Source of the DNA: a virus
Taxonomy: Duplodnaviria; Caudoviricetes
Length of the DNA stretch: 64,000 nt
IMG/VR virus record: IMGVR_UViG_3300017933_000003
Coordinates: 1 to 64,000 of that record
Strand: one strand, 5' to 3'
Both the position numbers and the translations under genes were made by a program. Numbering within the stretch: the stretch's first letter is position 1; each line of letters starts with the position of its first letter. Below, in pieces: positions 5,779 to 61,768 of the stretch. Below the pieces are notes generated by a model that was not told where the DNA came from, made no database searches, and saw nothing but the letters and a program-made list of their open reading frames with translations.

Positions 5779-6017
5779 TGCCGTTATCAGATCACTTTCA
5801 CCGTGGTTTGCAAGCCATCGCAGCAGCTTGCTTGCTGATTCTTGGCAACGTCTTCATTTGCTTTACTGTCGCGTTTGTAGTGGAGATCGAGCTAATTGCC
5901 AGCGGTTGTAATCGATATGTAGCTTTACTTTTAGCCATCCTGACAGGCATTGTTTGCAACACATATGTCGTGTTCAATCATAAAATCAGGAACTTTATCA
6001 AAAACCAGAGGAGCTAG
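5775..6017 (+). CDS. small membrane protein
   Basis: two hydrophobic segments. Confidence 0.55.
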   Translation: MMPLSDHFHRGLQAIAAACLLILGNVFICFTVAFVVEIELIASGCNRYVALLLAILTGIVCNTYVVFNHKIRNFIKNQRS

Positions 6018-10900: not shown

Positions 10901-10970
10901 TTAAATTGAACACCTATCAATAACGATATATACTCTCACGCAAGAGGGGAAAATATATTTTGGCACCAAT

Positions 10971-11071
10971 TGCCTCGACAATGGTTGAGCGTAATTCCTT
11001 ATCATTCGTATAAATTACACGCTCTTGACGTTGTAGCTACCGTGATTATAATGCGGTGCTTGACGAAGGCA
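10971..11071 (+). promoter_or_regulatory. structured 5' leader of the Ro60 gene
   Basis: TGCCT/AGGCA closing helix, GAGCGT-AATT/AATT-AC-ACGCTC and ACCGT/GCGGT hairpins; lies between a CGATATAT motif (10924) and the ATG at 11117. Confidence 0.45.
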
Positions 11072-11116
11072 TCGTCATTTTGTTGGAACTTTCTTCCAAA
11101 TAAAAGGAGTATTCAC

Positions 11117-12694
11117 ATGTCAAACAAGAATCTATTTTCGAACAAGAAGGCAACTGTGTCTCGTAAGGTGACTCGTGCAACTGACACGACTAATGAAGCA
11201 GGTGGAACTGCCTATAAGCTATCCGACAAGGCTGCTTTGGCGCAATACGCTCTGACTGGCACTTTCAACGGCACCTACTATGCTTCGGATGCAGAGCAGT
11301 TGAAGAAGACGCTCGAATTGGCTAACAAGGTCGATGTTAAGTTCGTTGCCAAGCTTGCCGTGTACGCACGTGAACAAGGCTTAATGAAAGATATGCCCGC
11401 CGTGTTAGCTGCAGTAGTGGCTAGCCGAGATACCGAATTGTTAGCTCAGATTTTTGATCGAGTGATTGATAACCCGAAGATGCTCCGCAACTTCGTGCAG
11501 ATCATTCGTTCAAGTGCGGTGGGTCGCAAGTCCTTTGGCACTCGTATCAAGCGATTGATTCAGAACTATTTGGAAAACTTGACCGACGAACAATTGTTTA
11601 AGGCTGACGTGGGTAACGATCCCAGCTTGCAGGACATTATTAAACTGGTTCACCCCAAGCCTTCTAACAAGAAACGTTCCGCCATGTATGGATATTTGCT
11701 GGACAAAGAATATAATGCTCGCGATTTAGCGCCTTTGGCTAAGGAGTTTGAGCGTTTCAAGAAGGAACTGTCTGGAGAGATTCCTGACGTTCCGTTTCAA
11801 ATGTTAACGGCATTACCGTTGACGGATAAGCACTGGAAGCAGATTGCTGATAATGCCACCTGGAATCAGACACGTATGAATTTGAATACGTTTGCACGTC
11901 ACAATGTATTGGTTGATCGTGATATGACGGTTAAGCTTGCCAAGCGTCTCTCTAACCCAGAGTCAGTGCGTAAGGCGAAGGTGTTTCCTTATCAGTTGTT
12001 TACTTCATATCTCAACATGGATACTACTATTCCTGCCAATTTGACCAATGCGTTGCAAGATGCTGCGGACTCAGCTTTGGATAATATTCCTGAGTTCTCG
12101 GGTAAGGTCTATGTCATGGTAGACACTTCCGGTTCTATGAGTTCTCCAGCCACGGGAAACCGTGGTTCAGTGACCACCAAAACTCGTTGTGTAGATGTAG
12201 CAGGACTCTTTGCTGCCGCTATCTTGCGTAAGAACCCTGATACGGAAATCGTTCCTTTCGATACACGTGTGCACGTGGACTTTCGTTTGAATACTCGTGA
12301 CTCTATTATGACCAACGCTCAAAAGTTGGCTTCTTTCGGTGGCGGTGGTACCGATTGTTCCGCTGCTTTGAAGTATGTCAACAGTCAGCTTAAGAAGGGC
12401 GACCTGGTTATCTATATTAGTGATAACCAAAGTTGGTTAGATTCGGGTTCCTCCTATTATCATGATGCTACGGCAACTATGAATGAGTGGAATAAGTTCA
12501 AAGCTCGCAACCCGAAGGCAAAGTTGGTGTGTATTGATATTCAGCCGTATGCTTCAACCCAGGCACACGATCGTGAAGATATACTAAATATTGGGGGATT
12601 TTCTGATACTTGCTTCGAAGTAATCAATAATTTTATGGAGATGGGATCCAACAAGGATCTTTGGATCAAAACCATCGAGTCCGTCACGCTCTGA
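11117..12694 (+). CDS. Ro60 / TROVE-domain RNA-binding protein with C-terminal vWA domain
   Basis: TNEAGGTAY, GTFNGTYY, MKDMP, LRNFVQIIRS, TRMNLNTF, VFPYQLF and VDTSGSMS (MIDAS) motifs; AAGGAG RBS before ATG 11117. Confidence 0.92.
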   Translation: MSNKNLFSNKKATVSRKVTRATDTTNEAGGTAYKLSDKAALAQYALTGTFNGTYYASDAEQLKKTLELANKVDVKFVAKLAVYAREQGLMKDMPAVLAAVVASRDTELLAQIFDRVIDNPKMLRNFVQIIRSSAVGRKSFGTRIKRLIQNYLENLTDEQLFKADVGNDPSLQDIIKLVHPKPSNKKRSAMYGYLLDKEYNARDLAPLAKEFERFKKELSGEIPDVPFQMLTALPLTDKHWKQIADNATWNQTRMNLNTFARHNVLVDRDMTVKLAKRLSNPESVRKAKVFPYQLFTSYLNMDTTIPANLTNALQDAADSALDNIPEFSGKVYVMVDTSGSMSSPATGNRGSVTTKTRCVDVAGLFAAAILRKNPDTEIVPFDTRVHVDFRLNTRDSIMTNAQKLASFGGGGTDCSAALKYVNSQLKKGDLVIYISDNQSWLDSGSSYYHDATATMNEWNKFKARNPKAKLVCIDIQPYASTQAHDREDILNIGGFSDTCFEVINNFMEMGSNKDLWIKTIESVTL

Positions 12695-12728: not shown

Positions 12729-12926
12729 ATGATCAGACAACTTCTCAAGCACATATTTTCTCTTTCCGAAAATAAAACCGATTCTACTTGGTGGGTTGGA
12801 CTTATCTGCTCTTCATGTGGAGAATCTTTAACGCAGGCACCAAATAGCTACTGTGGTCATTGTAAAAGAACTATCTGCGAGAAGTGTGGCTACATTCCAG
12901 GCGGATGTGGCTGGTGTGGAGGATGA
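12729..12926 (+). CDS. small Cys-rich zinc-finger protein
   Basis: four CxxC pairs in 65 aa. Confidence 0.55.
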   Translation: MIRQLLKHIFSLSENKTDSTWWVGLICSSCGESLTQAPNSYCGHCKRTICEKCGYIPGGCGWCGG

Positions 12927-13526
12927 ATGATTACCTTAGATAAACTTATTTTAGAAGCTAAACGAGCCGCCGAACTATCTTATTCCCCATACTCACACTT
13001 CCGTGTGGGTGCGTGTGTGGAAGTGGATGGAGACCTCTACTATAGCGGCACCAACATCGAAAACGCCTCTTATGGCTTGACCATTTGTGCGGAACGCGTA
13101 GCCATCTGCAAAGCCGTTTCTCACGGGCATACTAAGCTCAAGAGAGTGATTGTCTATGGTCCTTCTGAACAAGTTCGTACTGCACCTTGTGGTGCTTGCC
13201 GACAGTTCATTAAGGAGTTTGCCGACGAAGAAACTCGAATTCACTGCGTGTGTAACACTGACTCTACTATGGTTTTTACCATGGAAGAATTGCTGCCTAA
13301 GGCATTTGGACCCGAAAATTTGCTGAGGAGAAAGACGGAAGCTACTGCTATCTTGGACGCCCAAAGCACCCGAGATCCAGTTAGAGATTGTCGCTTCTGT
13401 GGGCAGTTTCCATGTCCCGATCATGCGCCATATTATGAAGAAATAGAAAGAAAACTTCAGGAAAGATTAAGGGAAATTCAAGCAGAAAAAGATTTTTTAG
13501 AGAAACCTGGCACGTCTACCTCTTAA
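12927..13526 (+). CDS. cdd: cytidine deaminase with C-terminal extension
   Basis: YSPYSHFRVGA, NIENASY, CAERVA and PCGACRQ motifs. Confidence 0.9.
   Translation: MITLDKLILEAKRAAELSYSPYSHFRVGACVEVDGDLYYSGTNIENASYGLTICAERVAICKAVSHGHTKLKRVIVYGPSEQVRTAPCGACRQFIKEFADEETRIHCVCNTDSTMVFTMEELLPKAFGPENLLRRKTEATAILDAQSTRDPVRDCRFCGQFPCPDHAPYYEEIERKLQERLREIQAEKDFLEKPGTSTS
13493..13499 (+). promoter_or_regulatory. candidate -1 ribosomal frameshift slippery site T TTT TTA
   Basis: in phase with cdd (GAT TTT TTA); the -1 frame opens the GIY-YIG ORF; CGTCTAC/GTAGACG hairpin downstream. Confidence 0.6.
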
Positions 13527-13747
13527 AATGTGTAGACGGCACTCTGTATACCGGTATCACTAATAATTTAGATAGAAGAATTAAACAACATAACAAGGGT
13601 CGCGGCGCAAAATATACACGTGGTCGTGGTCCCGTTACCCTGGTTAAGTCCTTCCAATGCCTCAATAAAAGTGATGCTCTCAAATTAGAATACAAAATCA
13701 AGAAACTATCAAAAGATGAGAAATTGAGTTATATAGACTCAATATGA
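13499..13747 (+). CDS. GIY-YIG nuclease, UPF0213/YhbQ-like; no ATG/GTG/TTG start (not in the ORF track)
   Basis: manual translation WHVYLLKCVDGTLYTGITNNLDRRIKQHNKGRGAKYTRGRGP...ALKLEYKIK; its TGA overlaps the next ATG (ATGA). Confidence 0.85.
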   Translation, partial: RETWHVYLLKCVDGTLYTGITNNLDRRIKQHNKGRGAKYTRGRGPVTLVKSFQCLNKSDALKLEYKIKKLSKDEKLSYIDSI

Positions 13748-14208
13748 GTAAAGATATCGATAATCTTCTTAGATGGCTTCAAATTCGTGAAGAAAATGGT
13801 ATTGCTTTTCCTTCTGGTTTATCCCAATTTAATGCCGACATTGGACACTCAGCCTTATTGAACCGCTTAATGGAAGGTAAAGAGCCATTACCCATTGCCC
13901 CTCCGCGAGCCTATTCTTATCCTTGGTATCATCTCATTGAGGATGGATATGGTTACCCTTACGAAGTATGGGAGGCGCCTAAAGAATTTAGCACCGAATA
14001 TAATGCTCTCATTATTGAACAGTGCCTTTGTTGGAAAGTTTTAGAAAAAATTTCCGATAACGAATGGATTGTTACCTATTCCTATCAAAATAGAAAAGAA
14101 ACAAAATGGCACCCTGATAGGTGGCACGTATATCAAATAGGCTCTCGTATCCCACAGCATCCCGACCAAAGATCTTCCAATAAATTATGGAAAATAGAGA
14201 AGCTATGA
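13744..14208 (+). CDS. hypothetical protein
   Basis: 154-aa ORF. Confidence 0.6.
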   Translation: MSKDIDNLLRWLQIREENGIAFPSGLSQFNADIGHSALLNRLMEGKEPLPIAPPRAYSYPWYHLIEDGYGYPYEVWEAPKEFSTEYNALIIEQCLCWKVLEKISDNEWIVTYSYQNRKETKWHPDRWHVYQIGSRIPQHPDQRSSNKLWKIEKL

Positions 14209-14260
14209 GATGAGGATATATTTAGGGTTGACTAAAACTTTTACCTTAGGATTTTATAAA

Positions 14261-14968
14261 ATGACCAAACCCAATTTTACATCTATCAACGTCGTGATCG
14301 ATCGCTCTGGCTCTATGTCCAGTTTGCGGCAAGACACCATCGGCTCTTTTAATAGCTTTCTTCAAGAACAAAAGGTAGTACCAGGTGAGTGTGTTTTTAC
14401 TCTCTGCACTTTTAGTGACGACTATCATTTGGTGCATGATTTCGAAAAGATTGCCAACGTCCCCGAACTTACAAAGGCTACTTATCGTCCAGGTGGAAAT
14501 ACCGCTCTTTTGGACGCTTTTGGTGCCACTATTGATGAAGTAGGTCGTAAGCTTGCCGCTATGCCCGAAGGAGAGAGACCCGACAAGGTGCTCTTCTTGG
14601 TCATCACTGACGGACAGGAGAACAGCAGCAGCCGTTATACTCGCGATCAAATCAAGAGCATGGTGGAACATCAACGCTCTGTTTATTCGTGGGAATTTGT
14701 CTTTGTTGGCGCGAACATCGATGCCTTTACTGTGGGCACTAGTCTTGGTTTTACCGGACAAAATTCGGTAGGTTATGTTCCAACAGCGGCTGGCACCAAT
14801 AGTTTGTACGGCAGTATTTCCAGCAATACTACTGCTTACCGTTCCAGCAAATCTTCTTTGTCTCCTGATTTCTTTAGTCAGACTGGAATTACTCCTACTA
14901 CTCCGGCTCCTGCCGCTCCGGTTGTCCCCACGACTCCGGACACTAGTGGCAGCACCCCATCTAAGTAA
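14261..14968 (+). CDS. vWA domain protein
   Basis: VIDRSGSMS MIDAS, GNTALLDA and VITDGQEN motifs; Pro/Thr-rich tail. Confidence 0.85.
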   Translation: MTKPNFTSINVVIDRSGSMSSLRQDTIGSFNSFLQEQKVVPGECVFTLCTFSDDYHLVHDFEKIANVPELTKATYRPGGNTALLDAFGATIDEVGRKLAAMPEGERPDKVLFLVITDGQENSSSRYTRDQIKSMVEHQRSVYSWEFVFVGANIDAFTVGTSLGFTGQNSVGYVPTAAGTNSLYGSISSNTTAYRSSKSSLSPDFFSQTGITPTTPAPAAPVVPTTPDTSGSTPSK

Positions 14969-18985: not shown

Positions 18986-19687
18986 TTATATGAGCGATAA
19001 TGCTAATTGATTTTTTCTTGGCATAGATAGTTTATGTTCAGGGTAGTATAGCCAAGTTAATAATTTTTGGGCATTTGAATCATTAAATTGTAGTCGATAT
19101 TGATTGCAAGTCGCAATGACCTCTTTACCTCTAATGATTGAGTTTTTTGGACTCAATGTAATTATGTGGCAGCTAATATTACTTGGTATTAGTGATGATA
19201 TTTGTTCAATAAATATTTTTGAGGCAGAACACAAATATATTGTTCTTTTAGTATACCAGTATTCTTTATTGTTTTTAACTTTCTTATATGGGCACGAGGT
19301 AATTGATCCGTCCCCATCAATTAGTCCTCGGATAAAGTCTCGATGATATTTTTCTGGTATCGTTTTTTCTAATAATAAAGTTTTAGATTTGCGTGGAGTG
19401 CACCCATAAGATATGAGCCAACTCATAGCATCAATATCCGAAACTTCTATTGCGCAGCAATTAAGTCGGTCGTATAATGGCTTGTTAGGACAAATAATAT
19501 CTCGGATATTTTCAATCCAATCTCTATCTTTAGATATTATACTAAAGGAGACGTGATGCTTGGTATCGTTGATATTACCGTCCGTCATATACGCGCCCAA
19601 TAAATAAAATGAGACATCGTCTTCACGAAGAAACACATCAGAGTTAACGATATATTTTCTGACAGTAGCTTTTTTCATAAGTTCCAT
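18986..19687 (-). CDS. LAGLIDADG homing endonuclease
   Basis: YLLGAYMTDGNI and FIRGLIDGDGS; start placed at ATG 19687 with AGGAG RBS (track start 19708). Confidence 0.85.
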   Translation of the reverse strand: MELMKKATVRKYIVNSDVFLREDDVSFYLLGAYMTDGNINDTKHHVSFSIISKDRDWIENIRDIICPNKPLYDRLNCCAIEVSDIDAMSWLISYGCTPRKSKTLLLEKTIPEKYHRDFIRGLIDGDGSITSCPYKKVKNNKEYWYTKRTIYLCSASKIFIEQISSLIPSNISCHIITLSPKNSIIRGKEVIATCNQYRLQFNDSNAQKLLTWLYYPEHKLSMPRKNQLALSLI

Positions 19688-21601: not shown

Positions 21602-21675
21602 GGCACTTTAGTTCAATGATAGAACAGACCGCTGAAGACGGTCGGACAACAGTTTGATTCTGTTAGGTGCCACCA
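21602..21675 (+). tRNA. tRNA-Phe(GAA)
   Basis: GGCACTT/AGGTGCC; GACCG-CTGAAGA-CGGTC; CCA. Confidence 0.9.
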
Positions 21676-59770: not shown

Positions 59771-61051
59771 ATGGCACGCTTTGTCGGAGTCAAAAATAAT
59801 CGTATTTGCATAGTATCAGATAAACCGTTCAGCAATGATGGTTTGCAGGTGTTAGAAATACCACCCGAGTTATCTGACGTGAATGCTGCTGACCTAATCA
59901 TTAGATGTAAAGTGAAAGATGGTATAATCAAGTGTAAAACTTTCAAGAAGGCTGCCAAACAAATGAAGGTTGCTTTAGTGGGTAATTGGAAGATGCGCTG
60001 TGGAATCGCTACTTACTCCGAAAACTTATGGAGCGAAGTCGTTAAACATGTAGGCGGTTTCAAACTTTTTATCGAGAAAAATGATCTGCCAACCGGCGAT
60101 GTTCATCAAATTGGCACACAATTGATACCAGATAGTCAAGTTTCCGCGTGCTGGAAACGCGGTGAGTCACTCAAGCAACTCATTGCTGAATTAAAAGAAT
60201 ATGATCCCGATATCATTTGGATCCAACATGAATTTGGGCTGTGGCCTAATGCCGCATATTGGTTGTCAATGATGTCTCAGCTGTCTGACTATCGTGTTAT
60301 TGTTACTATGCACTCAGTTTTTCATCATCGAGATAAGACTATTGTTGAAGCGGCTATGCCAGAAATTGTAACTCATTTGGAAGGTGGTAAGAGACTTTTA
60401 CAAGAAGAGAAGGGTATTACTTCTAAAGTGCACGTTATCCCTCATGGTTGCCAGCCATTTAATAACGAGAGGTTATGGAATTTCTATAAGTCTGATAAAA
60501 CTTTCCTGCAATTTGGTTTCGGTTTTCGTTACAAAGGTTGGGAGAATGCGGTTATGGCTACCGCTATCCTGGCTAAAAAATATCCCGAGGTTTTTTTCAC
60601 GGGACTATTTTCCGATTCTCCTTATGCTAAAACGGAACATCAGATTTACTTTAGCGAGTTGATGCAGTTGGCAGATCGGCTCGATATACGGAATAATATC
60701 GCTATTTTACGTGGTTATCAATCAGATGCCTCTTTAGATAGTTTCTTGCGTACTAATCAAGCTACCATCTTTCCGTACGTCTCTTCTCCCGAACATGAGG
60801 TTTTTGGTGCTTCTGGTGCCGCACGCATGGCAATGTCCAAAGGATTACCAGTAGTTACTTCTTCAGTCAATCACTTTTCTGATTTGCCCACCTTACAAGC
60901 CGATACGCCTGAACAATTAGCTAATGCACTGGAATATATCTTTACTGTACCAGGTGCTAAAGAAGCACAGGTAAAAAAGCAAATTGCCTATCTTGATGAT
61001 AACACTTGGGAAAAGTGCGCTTTGCGCTATATTAAGATCTTCGAGGAATGA
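59771..61051 (+). CDS. glycosyltransferase family 4 (GT-B)
   Basis: CGIATYS, IQHEFG, TMHSV, FGFGFRYKG and SGAARMAMSKGLPVVTS. Confidence 0.85.
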   Translation: MARFVGVKNNRICIVSDKPFSNDGLQVLEIPPELSDVNAADLIIRCKVKDGIIKCKTFKKAAKQMKVALVGNWKMRCGIATYSENLWSEVVKHVGGFKLFIEKNDLPTGDVHQIGTQLIPDSQVSACWKRGESLKQLIAELKEYDPDIIWIQHEFGLWPNAAYWLSMMSQLSDYRVIVTMHSVFHHRDKTIVEAAMPEIVTHLEGGKRLLQEEKGITSKVHVIPHGCQPFNNERLWNFYKSDKTFLQFGFGFRYKGWENAVMATAILAKKYPEVFFTGLFSDSPYAKTEHQIYFSELMQLADRLDIRNNIAILRGYQSDASLDSFLRTNQATIFPYVSSPEHEVFGASGAARMAMSKGLPVVTSSVNHFSDLPTLQADTPEQLANALEYIFTVPGAKEAQVKKQIAYLDDNTWEKCALRYIKIFEE

Positions 61052-61129: not shown

Positions 61130-61768
61130 ATGTTCTGTATCATTTATAAAATTGTTAACCTTCGGAACAAGAAACTCTATATAGGGCAGACTTGGTCATC
61201 CTTATCTCATCGATGGGGACAGCATATCTCGTCTAAAAGATGCCTCAAATTAGCTAACGCTATCGACAAATATGGCGTTTCTAATTTTAGCATAGAACTT
61301 ATCACCATAGCTCATACACAAGAGATGGCTGATTGGCTTGAAGATTATTTTATCAATAAATTTGATACTATTAAATTAGGGTACAATATTCGAGGTGGTG
61401 GCAGTCGTGGAAAACTTTCACAAGCAACCCGACAGAAAATATCTATTGCTAATACTGGTAAAAAATTTACAGAAGCAACAAAGATGAAATGTTCTTTAGC
61501 TCGTAAAGGCAAGTTAGGTCCAAATAAAGGAAAGATGATACCATTAAGTCCTGGTGCGGGCACACCCAAAGGAACAAAACCGTGGAATACGGGCACTAAA
61601 GGTGTTGTAGTTGCTTGGAACAAAGGTAGAAATAGTAATGATCGTTTGTTTACTGAAGAACAGGAACTTGTGATAGCGAAGGATGAAAGATCATCCAGAG
61701 TTTTAGCTAAGGAATATGGCGTATCTCGCTCTCACATTCTAAATATAAGGAAGCGCCATAAGGAGTAA
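61130..61768 (+). CDS. GIY-YIG homing endonuclease with NUMOD3-like repeats
   Basis: IIYKIVN...LYIGQT; GYN; TRQKISIANTGKK. Confidence 0.88.
   Translation: MFCIIYKIVNLRNKKLYIGQTWSSLSHRWGQHISSKRCLKLANAIDKYGVSNFSIELITIAHTQEMADWLEDYFINKFDTIKLGYNIRGGGSRGKLSQATRQKISIANTGKKFTEATKMKCSLARKGKLGPNKGKMIPLSPGAGTPKGTKPWNTGTKGVVVAWNKGRNSNDRLFTEEQELVIAKDERSSRVLAKEYGVSRSHILNIRKRHKE

Follow-up and report, generated by a model that had tools for sequence, protein, structure and literature searches.

We analysed a 64,000-nt stretch of viral DNA (the window), which corresponds to positions 1-64,000 of the IMG/VR virus record IMGVR_UViG_3300017933_000003 (79.6 kb; CheckV completeness 18%), a fragment of a very large (jumbo), uncultured phage. 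Its cytidine deaminase gene, cdd, is overlapped near its 3' end by a UPF0213-type GIY-YIG nuclease domain, which lies in the -1 frame relative to cdd and has no start codon of its own (Table 1). An earlier sequence-only reading of the window had proposed that the two are joined by a programmed -1 ribosomal frameshift, most ribosomes making the 199-amino-acid (aa) deaminase and a minority a 273-aa fusion of deaminase, linker, and nuclease. Here we weigh that proposal against relatives of the locus.

The nuclease domain is complete, as the sequence-only reading had described it. It scores 72.7 bits against PF01541 (cut-off 22.6) and covers positions 2-76 of the 78 in the profile. Five residues (Y4, Y14, R24, H28, and E61) are invariant in an alignment of seven clade members that includes the window (alignment A2). 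The motif residues checked were the first-strand Tyr, the Tyr of YTG, the Arg of RR/KR-x-x-x-H, and the Glu of LEYK, a set that includes catalytic residues of the family. Among solved structures, the best match is the stand-alone UPF0213 protein BH0048 of B. halodurans (PDB 1zg2, E=1.5e-21); this protein and EF2693 of E. faecalis (1ywl, E=1.3e-13) represent the same domain with the motif residues kept, but in both (96-107 aa) a start of their own lies just a few residues ahead of the first strand, whereas the window copy has none. The number of ATG, GTG, or TTG codons in the -1 frame from 13439 to 13747 is zero, and the first Trp of the domain is encoded at 13508. Carrying neither an extra module (NUMOD or helix-turn-helix) nor its own start, the domain does not have the makings of a free-standing homing endonuclease. 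Its stop codon does overlap the ATG of the next gene (ATGA, 13744-13747), another feature correctly noted from the window alone. A second, unrelated GIY-YIG gene lies elsewhere in the window (61130-61768, 212 aa, with its own ATG; PF01541 E=5e-11 at 61136-61369) and is probably a free-standing homing endonuclease.

The proposed slip site, T TTT TTA, is present in the cdd phase that had been claimed for it. Reading on from a -1 slip at this heptamer would add the 82 aa encoded by 13499-13744, giving a predicted fusion of 273 aa with the junction ...AEKDFL/RETWHVYLLK. In-phase T_TTT_TTA occurs only twice in the 16,124 codons of the window, and in-phase heptamers of the general form X_XXY_YYZ occur 71 times. 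The chance of finding some slippery heptamer in the 23-codon zone is ~10%, and that of finding exactly T_TTT_TTA is ~0.3%. Because a heptamer of some kind would appear by chance in about one case in ten, the observation in a single genome is only suggestive, and the weight of the argument comes from relatives. Other in-phase heptamers in the window that are followed by a long -1 open reading frame (at 60575, and at 19016 on the minus strand) had no domain match and look like ordinary frame overlap.

Table 1. Features of the cdd-GIY-YIG locus (window positions) and the junctions of the four frameshift-type loci
Feature	Positions	Strand	Remarks
Ro60/TROVE-vWA protein gene	10970-12694	+	neighbour upstream of cdd
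65-aa Cys-rich protein gene	12729-12926	+	directly before cdd
cdd, 0-frame product, 199 aa	12927-13526	+	ATG 12927, TAA 13524-13526
Cys/His-rich motif DCRFCGQFPCPDH in cdd tail	13386-13424	+	kept in closest phage cdd homologs (alignment A1)
-1 frame open stretch	13439-13747	+	102 codons + stop; preceding TGA 13436-13438, closing TGA 13745-13747
cdd-tail stretch like 3' end of L028 PARG	13456-13477	+	17/22 nt identical, same frame (ERLREI vs ESFKEI)
ATT near-cognate codon	13466-13468	+	sole near-cognate start upstream of the domain in the -1 frame; AGGA 3 nt upstream
Slippery heptamer T TTT TTA, proposed -1 slip site	13493-13499	+	0-frame GAT TTT TTA 13491-13499, X_XXY_YYZ phase
UPF0213-type GIY-YIG nuclease domain	13508-13723	+	PF01541 E=3e-20
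7-bp hairpin	13513-13538	+	CGTCTAC 13513-13519 / GTAGACG 13532-13538, 12-nt loop; lineage-specific
0-frame stop TAA	13524-13526	+	27 nt (8 intervening codons) past slippery A-site codon TTA
154-aa protein gene, no family match	13744-14208	+	ATG overlaps GIY-YIG stop; syntenic in L028 and L115
VWA protein gene	14210-14968	+	after the 154-aa gene
Window junction, 0 frame			GAT TTT TTA GAG AAA CCT GGC ACG TCT ACC TCT TAA
L028 junction, 0 frame			ATT TTT TTA GCG CAA CCT GGT ACG TCT ATA TTG TAA
L167 junction, 0 frame			ACT TTT TTA GAG ATA CTT GGC ACA TCT ATA TCT TAA
L168 junction, 0 frame			AGT TTT TTA GTC CAG TCT GGT ACG TTT ACA TCG TAA

Four loci of this type were found, each in a different sample: the window, L028/L029, L167, and L168. 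The second is represented by an ENA assembly (L028) and a Logan assembly (L029) with an identical 8.4-kb locus, and the last two were obtained by inspecting how the 120 best PARG homologs end, in search of an out-of-frame tail F-L-x-x-x-G-T (L168 is ENA ERZ25039540, contig named contig_15562). One other PARG, P0178, with a tail ending in ...IFL, was judged not to be of the frameshift type. In the three relatives, the gene upstream of the heptamer is not cdd but PARG, which in L028/L029 encodes 306 aa and lies behind cdd. The junction is laid out identically in all four: xxT TTT TTA stands in the same 0-frame phase (GAT, ATT, ACT, and AGT), the GIY-YIG Trp codon follows in the -1 frame 15 nt past the start of the heptamer, and a 0-frame TAA lies 27 nt past the TTA codon. 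The T run has six residues in the window, L167, and L168 and seven in L028. In L028, L167, and L168, a stop closes the -1 frame 7, 7, and 11 codons before the Trp, respectively, and the open codons in between include no ATG, GTG, TTG, CTG, or ATH; independent initiation is therefore excluded in these three. Conservation in homologs had been named by the sequence-only reading as a check on its proposal, and the heptamer, its phase, and a start-less -1-frame GIY-YIG are all kept in three diverged relatives. The domain has gone uncalled as a gene in the window, L028, and L167, and the public gene call in L168 (L168:3897-4100) is confined to a 67-aa fragment; it starts from an internal ATG, and the first strand, Tyr included, is missing from it.

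All 8 positions of TTTTTTAG are invariant in the four loci, as against 0 of the next 7 nt and 10 of the 31 third positions in the 31 opening codons of the domain. The codon before the T run may encode D, I, T, or S, but its third-position T is always kept, and the heptamer is followed by an R or S codon that opens with AG in every case. The heptamer and the frame arrangement are thus conserved beyond coding constraint. This conservation is seen between domains that are widely diverged, with a pairwise proportion of synonymous differences (pS) of 0.62-0.81, synonymous sites near saturation, and non-synonymous divergence of 17-36%. All four start-less domains are full length, show no stops or indel damage, and match Pfam with E values of 5e-18 to 1.6e-20; the Nei-Gojobori ratio of non-synonymous to synonymous change (dN/dS) for the window and L028 domains is ~0.15. 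A domain that had been silent since the common origin of the junction would not be expected to stay intact over such divergence.

These comparisons bear directly on the alternative that survives best, which is that the GIY-YIG domain is a silent remnant that lost its N-terminal partner and its start by deletion, goes untranslated, and follows the T run by coincidence. The relatives L026, L027, and L116 encode a ~200-aa two-domain protein with an ATG, of which the window keeps the counterpart of residues 115-194 only, and the deletion history is therefore real; U_UUU_UUA is moreover a weak motif in E. coli. A dead gene, however, would have gained stops and indels, whereas here the start-less design and the heptamer have persisted in four lineages close to synonymous saturation with every copy full length and significant by Pfam, and the cassette has been passed between phages as a unit. 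We consider a silent remnant unlikely.

Slippage of the RNA polymerase is improbable on other grounds. If the polymerase added one U within the T6 run (T7 in L028), some mRNAs would encode the fusion in frame, with the same minority product as outcome, and all four loci do need exactly +1 nt at a site that is a homopolymer. Runs at characterised sites of transcriptional slippage in bacteria and phages are ~8-9 or more, however, and the runs of 6-7 seen here fall short of this length. Furthermore, the 3' end of the run is fixed in X_XXY_YYZ phase and the A (and G) that follow are invariant, a constraint for which the polymerase has no need and the ribosome does. Initiation at the ATT at 13466, which would yield a free 93-aa GIY-YIG protein, is very improbable. 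This codon is in frame with the domain, and its short spacing from AGGA is not disqualifying since the GGAGGA of cdd itself also lies 3 nt before the ATG, but ATT starts are rare and weak, and the three relatives have no near-cognate codon in their short open -1 stretch, so that it cannot be the shared mechanism. An assembly or sequencing indel hiding one more T, and with it an ordinary in-frame 273-aa fusion, is likewise very improbable: although the junction is a homopolymer and L168 may, by its contig name only, stem from a long-read assembler, the same +1-nt error would be needed in four datasets with runs of 6, 6, 6, and 7, two assemblies (L028 and L029) give an identical locus, and no in-frame cdd-GIY-YIG or PARG-GIY-YIG fusion was present among the 120 best cdd and 120 best PARG homologs.

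We therefore favour a programmed -1 ribosomal frameshift at T TTT TTA that would produce a minority 273-aa cdd-GIY-YIG fusion beside the deaminase, a reading to which we assign a probability of roughly 0.7 and which is supported by the conservation of heptamer, phase, and start-less frame in the relatives. Ribosomes translating cdd would reach GAT TTT TTA, where most would stay in the 0 frame for 8 further codons and terminate at the TAA to release the 199-aa deaminase, and a minority would slip one base back on U_UUU_UUA and continue with AGA GAA ACC TGG, appending the 82-residue GIY-YIG portion. The slip could follow either of two routes. In tandem P- and A-site slippage, tRNA-Phe would move from UUU to UUU and tRNA-Leu from UUA to UUU, giving the junction ...KDFL-RETW; if P-site tRNA-Phe slipped while the A site was empty and UUA awaited its tRNA, the junction would read ...KDFF-RETW. 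ARAGORN identified 18 tRNA genes in the window, spread over 17165-53231, among them tRNA-Phe(GAA) at 21602-21675; it found no tRNA-Leu(UAA) in the window, which bears on the decoding of the slippery UUU UUA. The sequences establish the layout of the locus, the conserved heptamer, phase, and frame, the missing start codons, and an intact domain; we infer the slipping itself, its probably low rate, and the purpose of a small, fixed dose of tethered nuclease.

Several observations weigh against this frameshift. No hairpin or pseudoknot is conserved after the heptamer, the consensus fold of the four loci reaching just -3.1 kcal/mol with no covariation. The 7-bp hairpin CGTCTAC/GTAGACG, to which the sequence-only reading had pointed, is present in the window (-12.1 kcal/mol, z=-1.9; 9 of 200 shuffles fold as well), but it is lineage-specific and starts 10-13 nt after the heptamer, a spacer longer than the ~5-9 nt usual for characterised sites, and as a stimulator it is unsupported. 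Upstream, no Shine-Dalgarno-like element is conserved, purine-rich runs lying at different distances in each of the four loci. The frameshift-type copies of the domain are 51-69% identical to one another, somewhat more diverged than are the in-frame copies among themselves, which could reflect weaker constraint. The number of such loci found is four, and their junctions share a common origin rather than being four independent inventions. Finally, the U-type motifs that slip efficiently in E. coli have Y as their last base (H_HHU_UUY); U_UUA exceeds background there by just 1.8-3.6-fold, even with a pseudoknot stimulator (PMC4066793), so the slip rate may be very low unless the host differs from E. 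coli. A low rate is what this weakness leads one to expect, and it would suit a nuclease.

The sole candidate stimulator common to the four loci is the 0-frame stop 27 nt downstream. In engineered E. coli reporters, trailing ribosomes shifted most when the heptamer lay 8-10 codons before a stop, with a peak at 9 and a ~2-fold effect (PMC6815119). The spacing at our four loci (8 codons) falls within this range, but the reporters used G_GGA_AAG and a slow UGA whereas the stop here is TAA, and we offer purely as a hypothesis that the TAA might help the slip through ribosome collision. It is a doubtful further step to see in the cassette a portable stress-sensing frameshift module, its rate set, for want of an RNA stimulator, by collision with the ribosome terminating at the TAA or by the supply of tRNA-Leu(UAA). 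Were this the case, host defences that damage tRNAs or stall translation would bring about a higher dose of the tethered nuclease; as context, the phage carries Ro60, an RNA ligase, and at least 18 tRNA genes, and the window is without tRNA-Leu(UAA).

The relatives also suggest how the frameshift came to stand behind cdd. In a tree of tail-trimmed PARG proteins, the three frameshift-type PARGs and the PARG of L116 form a clade of four (support 0.96). L116, in which the gene order is cdd, PARG, and the two-domain protein, shares 94.8% DNA identity with L168 across cdd and PARG; the similarity ends 52 nt short of the heptamer and returns only with the downstream genes. A PARG tail with heptamer and GIY-YIG has therefore been exchanged whole with a PARG tail and two-domain gene. 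The record of the window holds no PARG, but the tail of its cdd includes a stretch (13456-13477) that resembles the 3' end of the L028 PARG, a match equalled by 3 of 2000 shuffles; the same stretch has no match to the L167 or L168 tails. The core of the window cdd is also closest to that of L028 (90%). Judging from this one short match to L028, the stretch is probably the remnant of a deleted PARG, and an ancestor with cdd, PARG, frameshift, and GIY-YIG probably lost the body of PARG by in-frame deletion, which would have left the cassette behind cdd. The window arrangement had first been taken for a simple deletion of the N-terminal domain from an L026-type gene; the loci L028, L167, and L168 then led us to prefer descent from a PARG-linked cassette. 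The heptamer and nuclease behave as one cassette, retained and exchanged by this phage clade.

In nearly all of ~150 other GIY-YIG homolog loci from IMG/VR and metagenomes, either an ATG, GTG, or TTG lies no more than a few codons from the first Trp, or the domain is the C-terminal part of an in-frame fusion. No further start-less -1 cases emerged when IMG/VR (by profile, 50 loci) and metagenomes (80 loci) were scanned with the GIY-YIG domain, and two DNA-pattern scans of IMG/VR for the junction returned 3 and 44 matches, all due to chance and none with a GIY-YIG. Homologs with an independent start, which the sequence-only reading had held would speak against it, are found among distant stand-alone proteins only and not among syntenic ones; a free-standing GIY-YIG gene was never seen within the syntenic clade loci examined. 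Isolated phages match the domain at no more than 56% identity, the copy in Ralstonia phage RP13 having a GTG start and that in LR756508 an ATG. The RP13 copy (L214:1489-1716; LC554890.1 94459-94686) is an unannotated UPF0213-type open reading frame between ORF129 and ORF130, and its GTG stands three codons before the Trp.

Large uncultured phages that share the gene order carry homologs of cdd that are 76-90% identical in the core, and among these relatives the slot after cdd varies. In L026 and L027, it is occupied by a gene for a protein of 195-196 aa; the ATG of this gene overlaps the stop of cdd, and residues 115-194 of the protein are a GIY-YIG domain. Two-domain proteins of this kind (L026, L027, L116, and L003-L006) resemble the window in having a 70-72% identical C-terminal domain in the same slot after cdd or PARG, but unlike the window, they carry it as an in-frame fusion to a ~114-aa domain with their own ATG overlapping the upstream stop. 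The first 114 residues of the L026/L027-type protein had no Pfam, NCBIfam, or PHROG match. This ~114-aa domain (L026:4579-4920, L027:2928-3281, L116:4894-5265) has the motif LFRPVG..EL.LI..SGW..FPPRLP.QPIFYPV, and the ESM Atlas clusters nearest to it consist of bacterial proteins of 110-118 aa without a Pfam family; one nearby cluster is auto-named 'putative ADP-ribosylation/crystallin J1', which serves as a lead only. In L115 (L115:4000-4821, Logan SRR21778115), a 273-aa protein has a homing-endonuclease-like GIY-YIG module in frame with the UPF0213 GIY-YIG and thus two GIY-YIG domains, the module giving a second PF01541 match and a weak NUMOD3 match. Similar fusions (~200 aa plus the domain) are present in IMG/VR loci L120, L121, L136, L138, and L141. 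A third start-less arrangement was observed in L030 (L030:5046-6143, Logan SRR29078204), where PARG ends in a TGA at 5895-5897 and the GIY-YIG resumes in the same frame four codons later; the junction, TGA CTG TCC AAA CCG TGG, has no ATG, GTG, or TTG and could be explained by UGA readthrough, by a restart at CTG, or by a nonsense mutation of recent date.

The cdd core (residues 1-132) is a tetrameric-type cytidine deaminase (PF00383, E=1e-18) that scores 146.1 bits against TIGR01354, the homotetrameric cytidine deaminase equivalog, and so exceeds its cut-off of 113.65. Its zinc-ligand motifs are CAER (residues 54-57, 13086-13097) and PCGACRQ (residues 87-93, 13185-13205). The C-terminal extension has 65 residues and includes DCRFCGQFPCPDH, which may act as a zinc ribbon. 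The phage cytidine deaminases of the clade share a Cys/His tail, DCRFCGQFPCxDH, that is unusual for the tetrameric type, and several relatives have a second C-x-x-C...C-x-C motif further along the tail. Close relatives of the window cdd and of the downstream 154-aa gene were absent from an IMG/VR search, and the region had no blastn match among isolated phages.

Compared with known -1 frameshifts, the locus is closest in its heptamer to HIV-1 gag-pol, which has U UUU UUA in the same phase and yields a minority trans-frame product with an added enzymatic domain. The window, however, belongs to a bacterial virus and has no conserved stem-loop after the heptamer, and U-type motifs ending in A are weak in E. 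coli (PMC4066793). The tail chaperone G/GT of lambda-like phages and other -1 frameshifts of double-stranded DNA phages likewise place X_XXY_YYZ near the 3' end of a gene to obtain a small, fixed, C-terminally extended fraction, but here the genes involved are non-structural, a nuclease domain is what is appended, and either PARG or cdd can serve as the upstream partner. The dnaX gene of E. coli (A AAA AAG, with a Shine-Dalgarno-like element and a hairpin) is similarly a bacterial-type -1 heptamer frameshift; there, two stimulators are well placed and the product of the slip is a shorter protein, whereas at our locus no stimulator is conserved and the slip would extend the protein. We found no description of cdd or PARG with a frameshifted GIY-YIG in the literature searched, nor any account there of YhbQ/UPF0213 function, and to judge from its sequence the locus is a new case of -1 frameshifting.

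Judged by the partners of GIY-YIG in the relatives (PARG, the ~114-aa domain, and the homing-endonuclease-like module) and by the neighbours in the window (Ro60, an RNA ligase, and a nucleotidyltransferase), a role in nucleic-acid repair or counter-defence is indicated more than the nucleotide scavenging that had been suggested from the window. The pairing with cdd looks secondary. A dedicated deaminase-nuclease partnership, as first envisaged, is unlikely given these other partners and a cdd tail that appears to hold a PARG remnant.

The locus thus provides a well-supported -1 frameshift beyond the usual phage cases of tail chaperones, capsid, and IS elements, one in which the slip would dose a nuclease domain onto a metabolic or ADP-ribose-processing enzyme. 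Because gene callers miss the domain (window, L028, L167) or shorten it (L168), this nuclease is under-counted in jumbo-phage genomes. The locus also offers a simple bacterial-virus example of the HIV-type U UUU UUA without an obvious RNA stimulator, and with slip site and nuclease forming one exchangeable cassette behind PARG or cdd, it would be a natural example of modular recoding.

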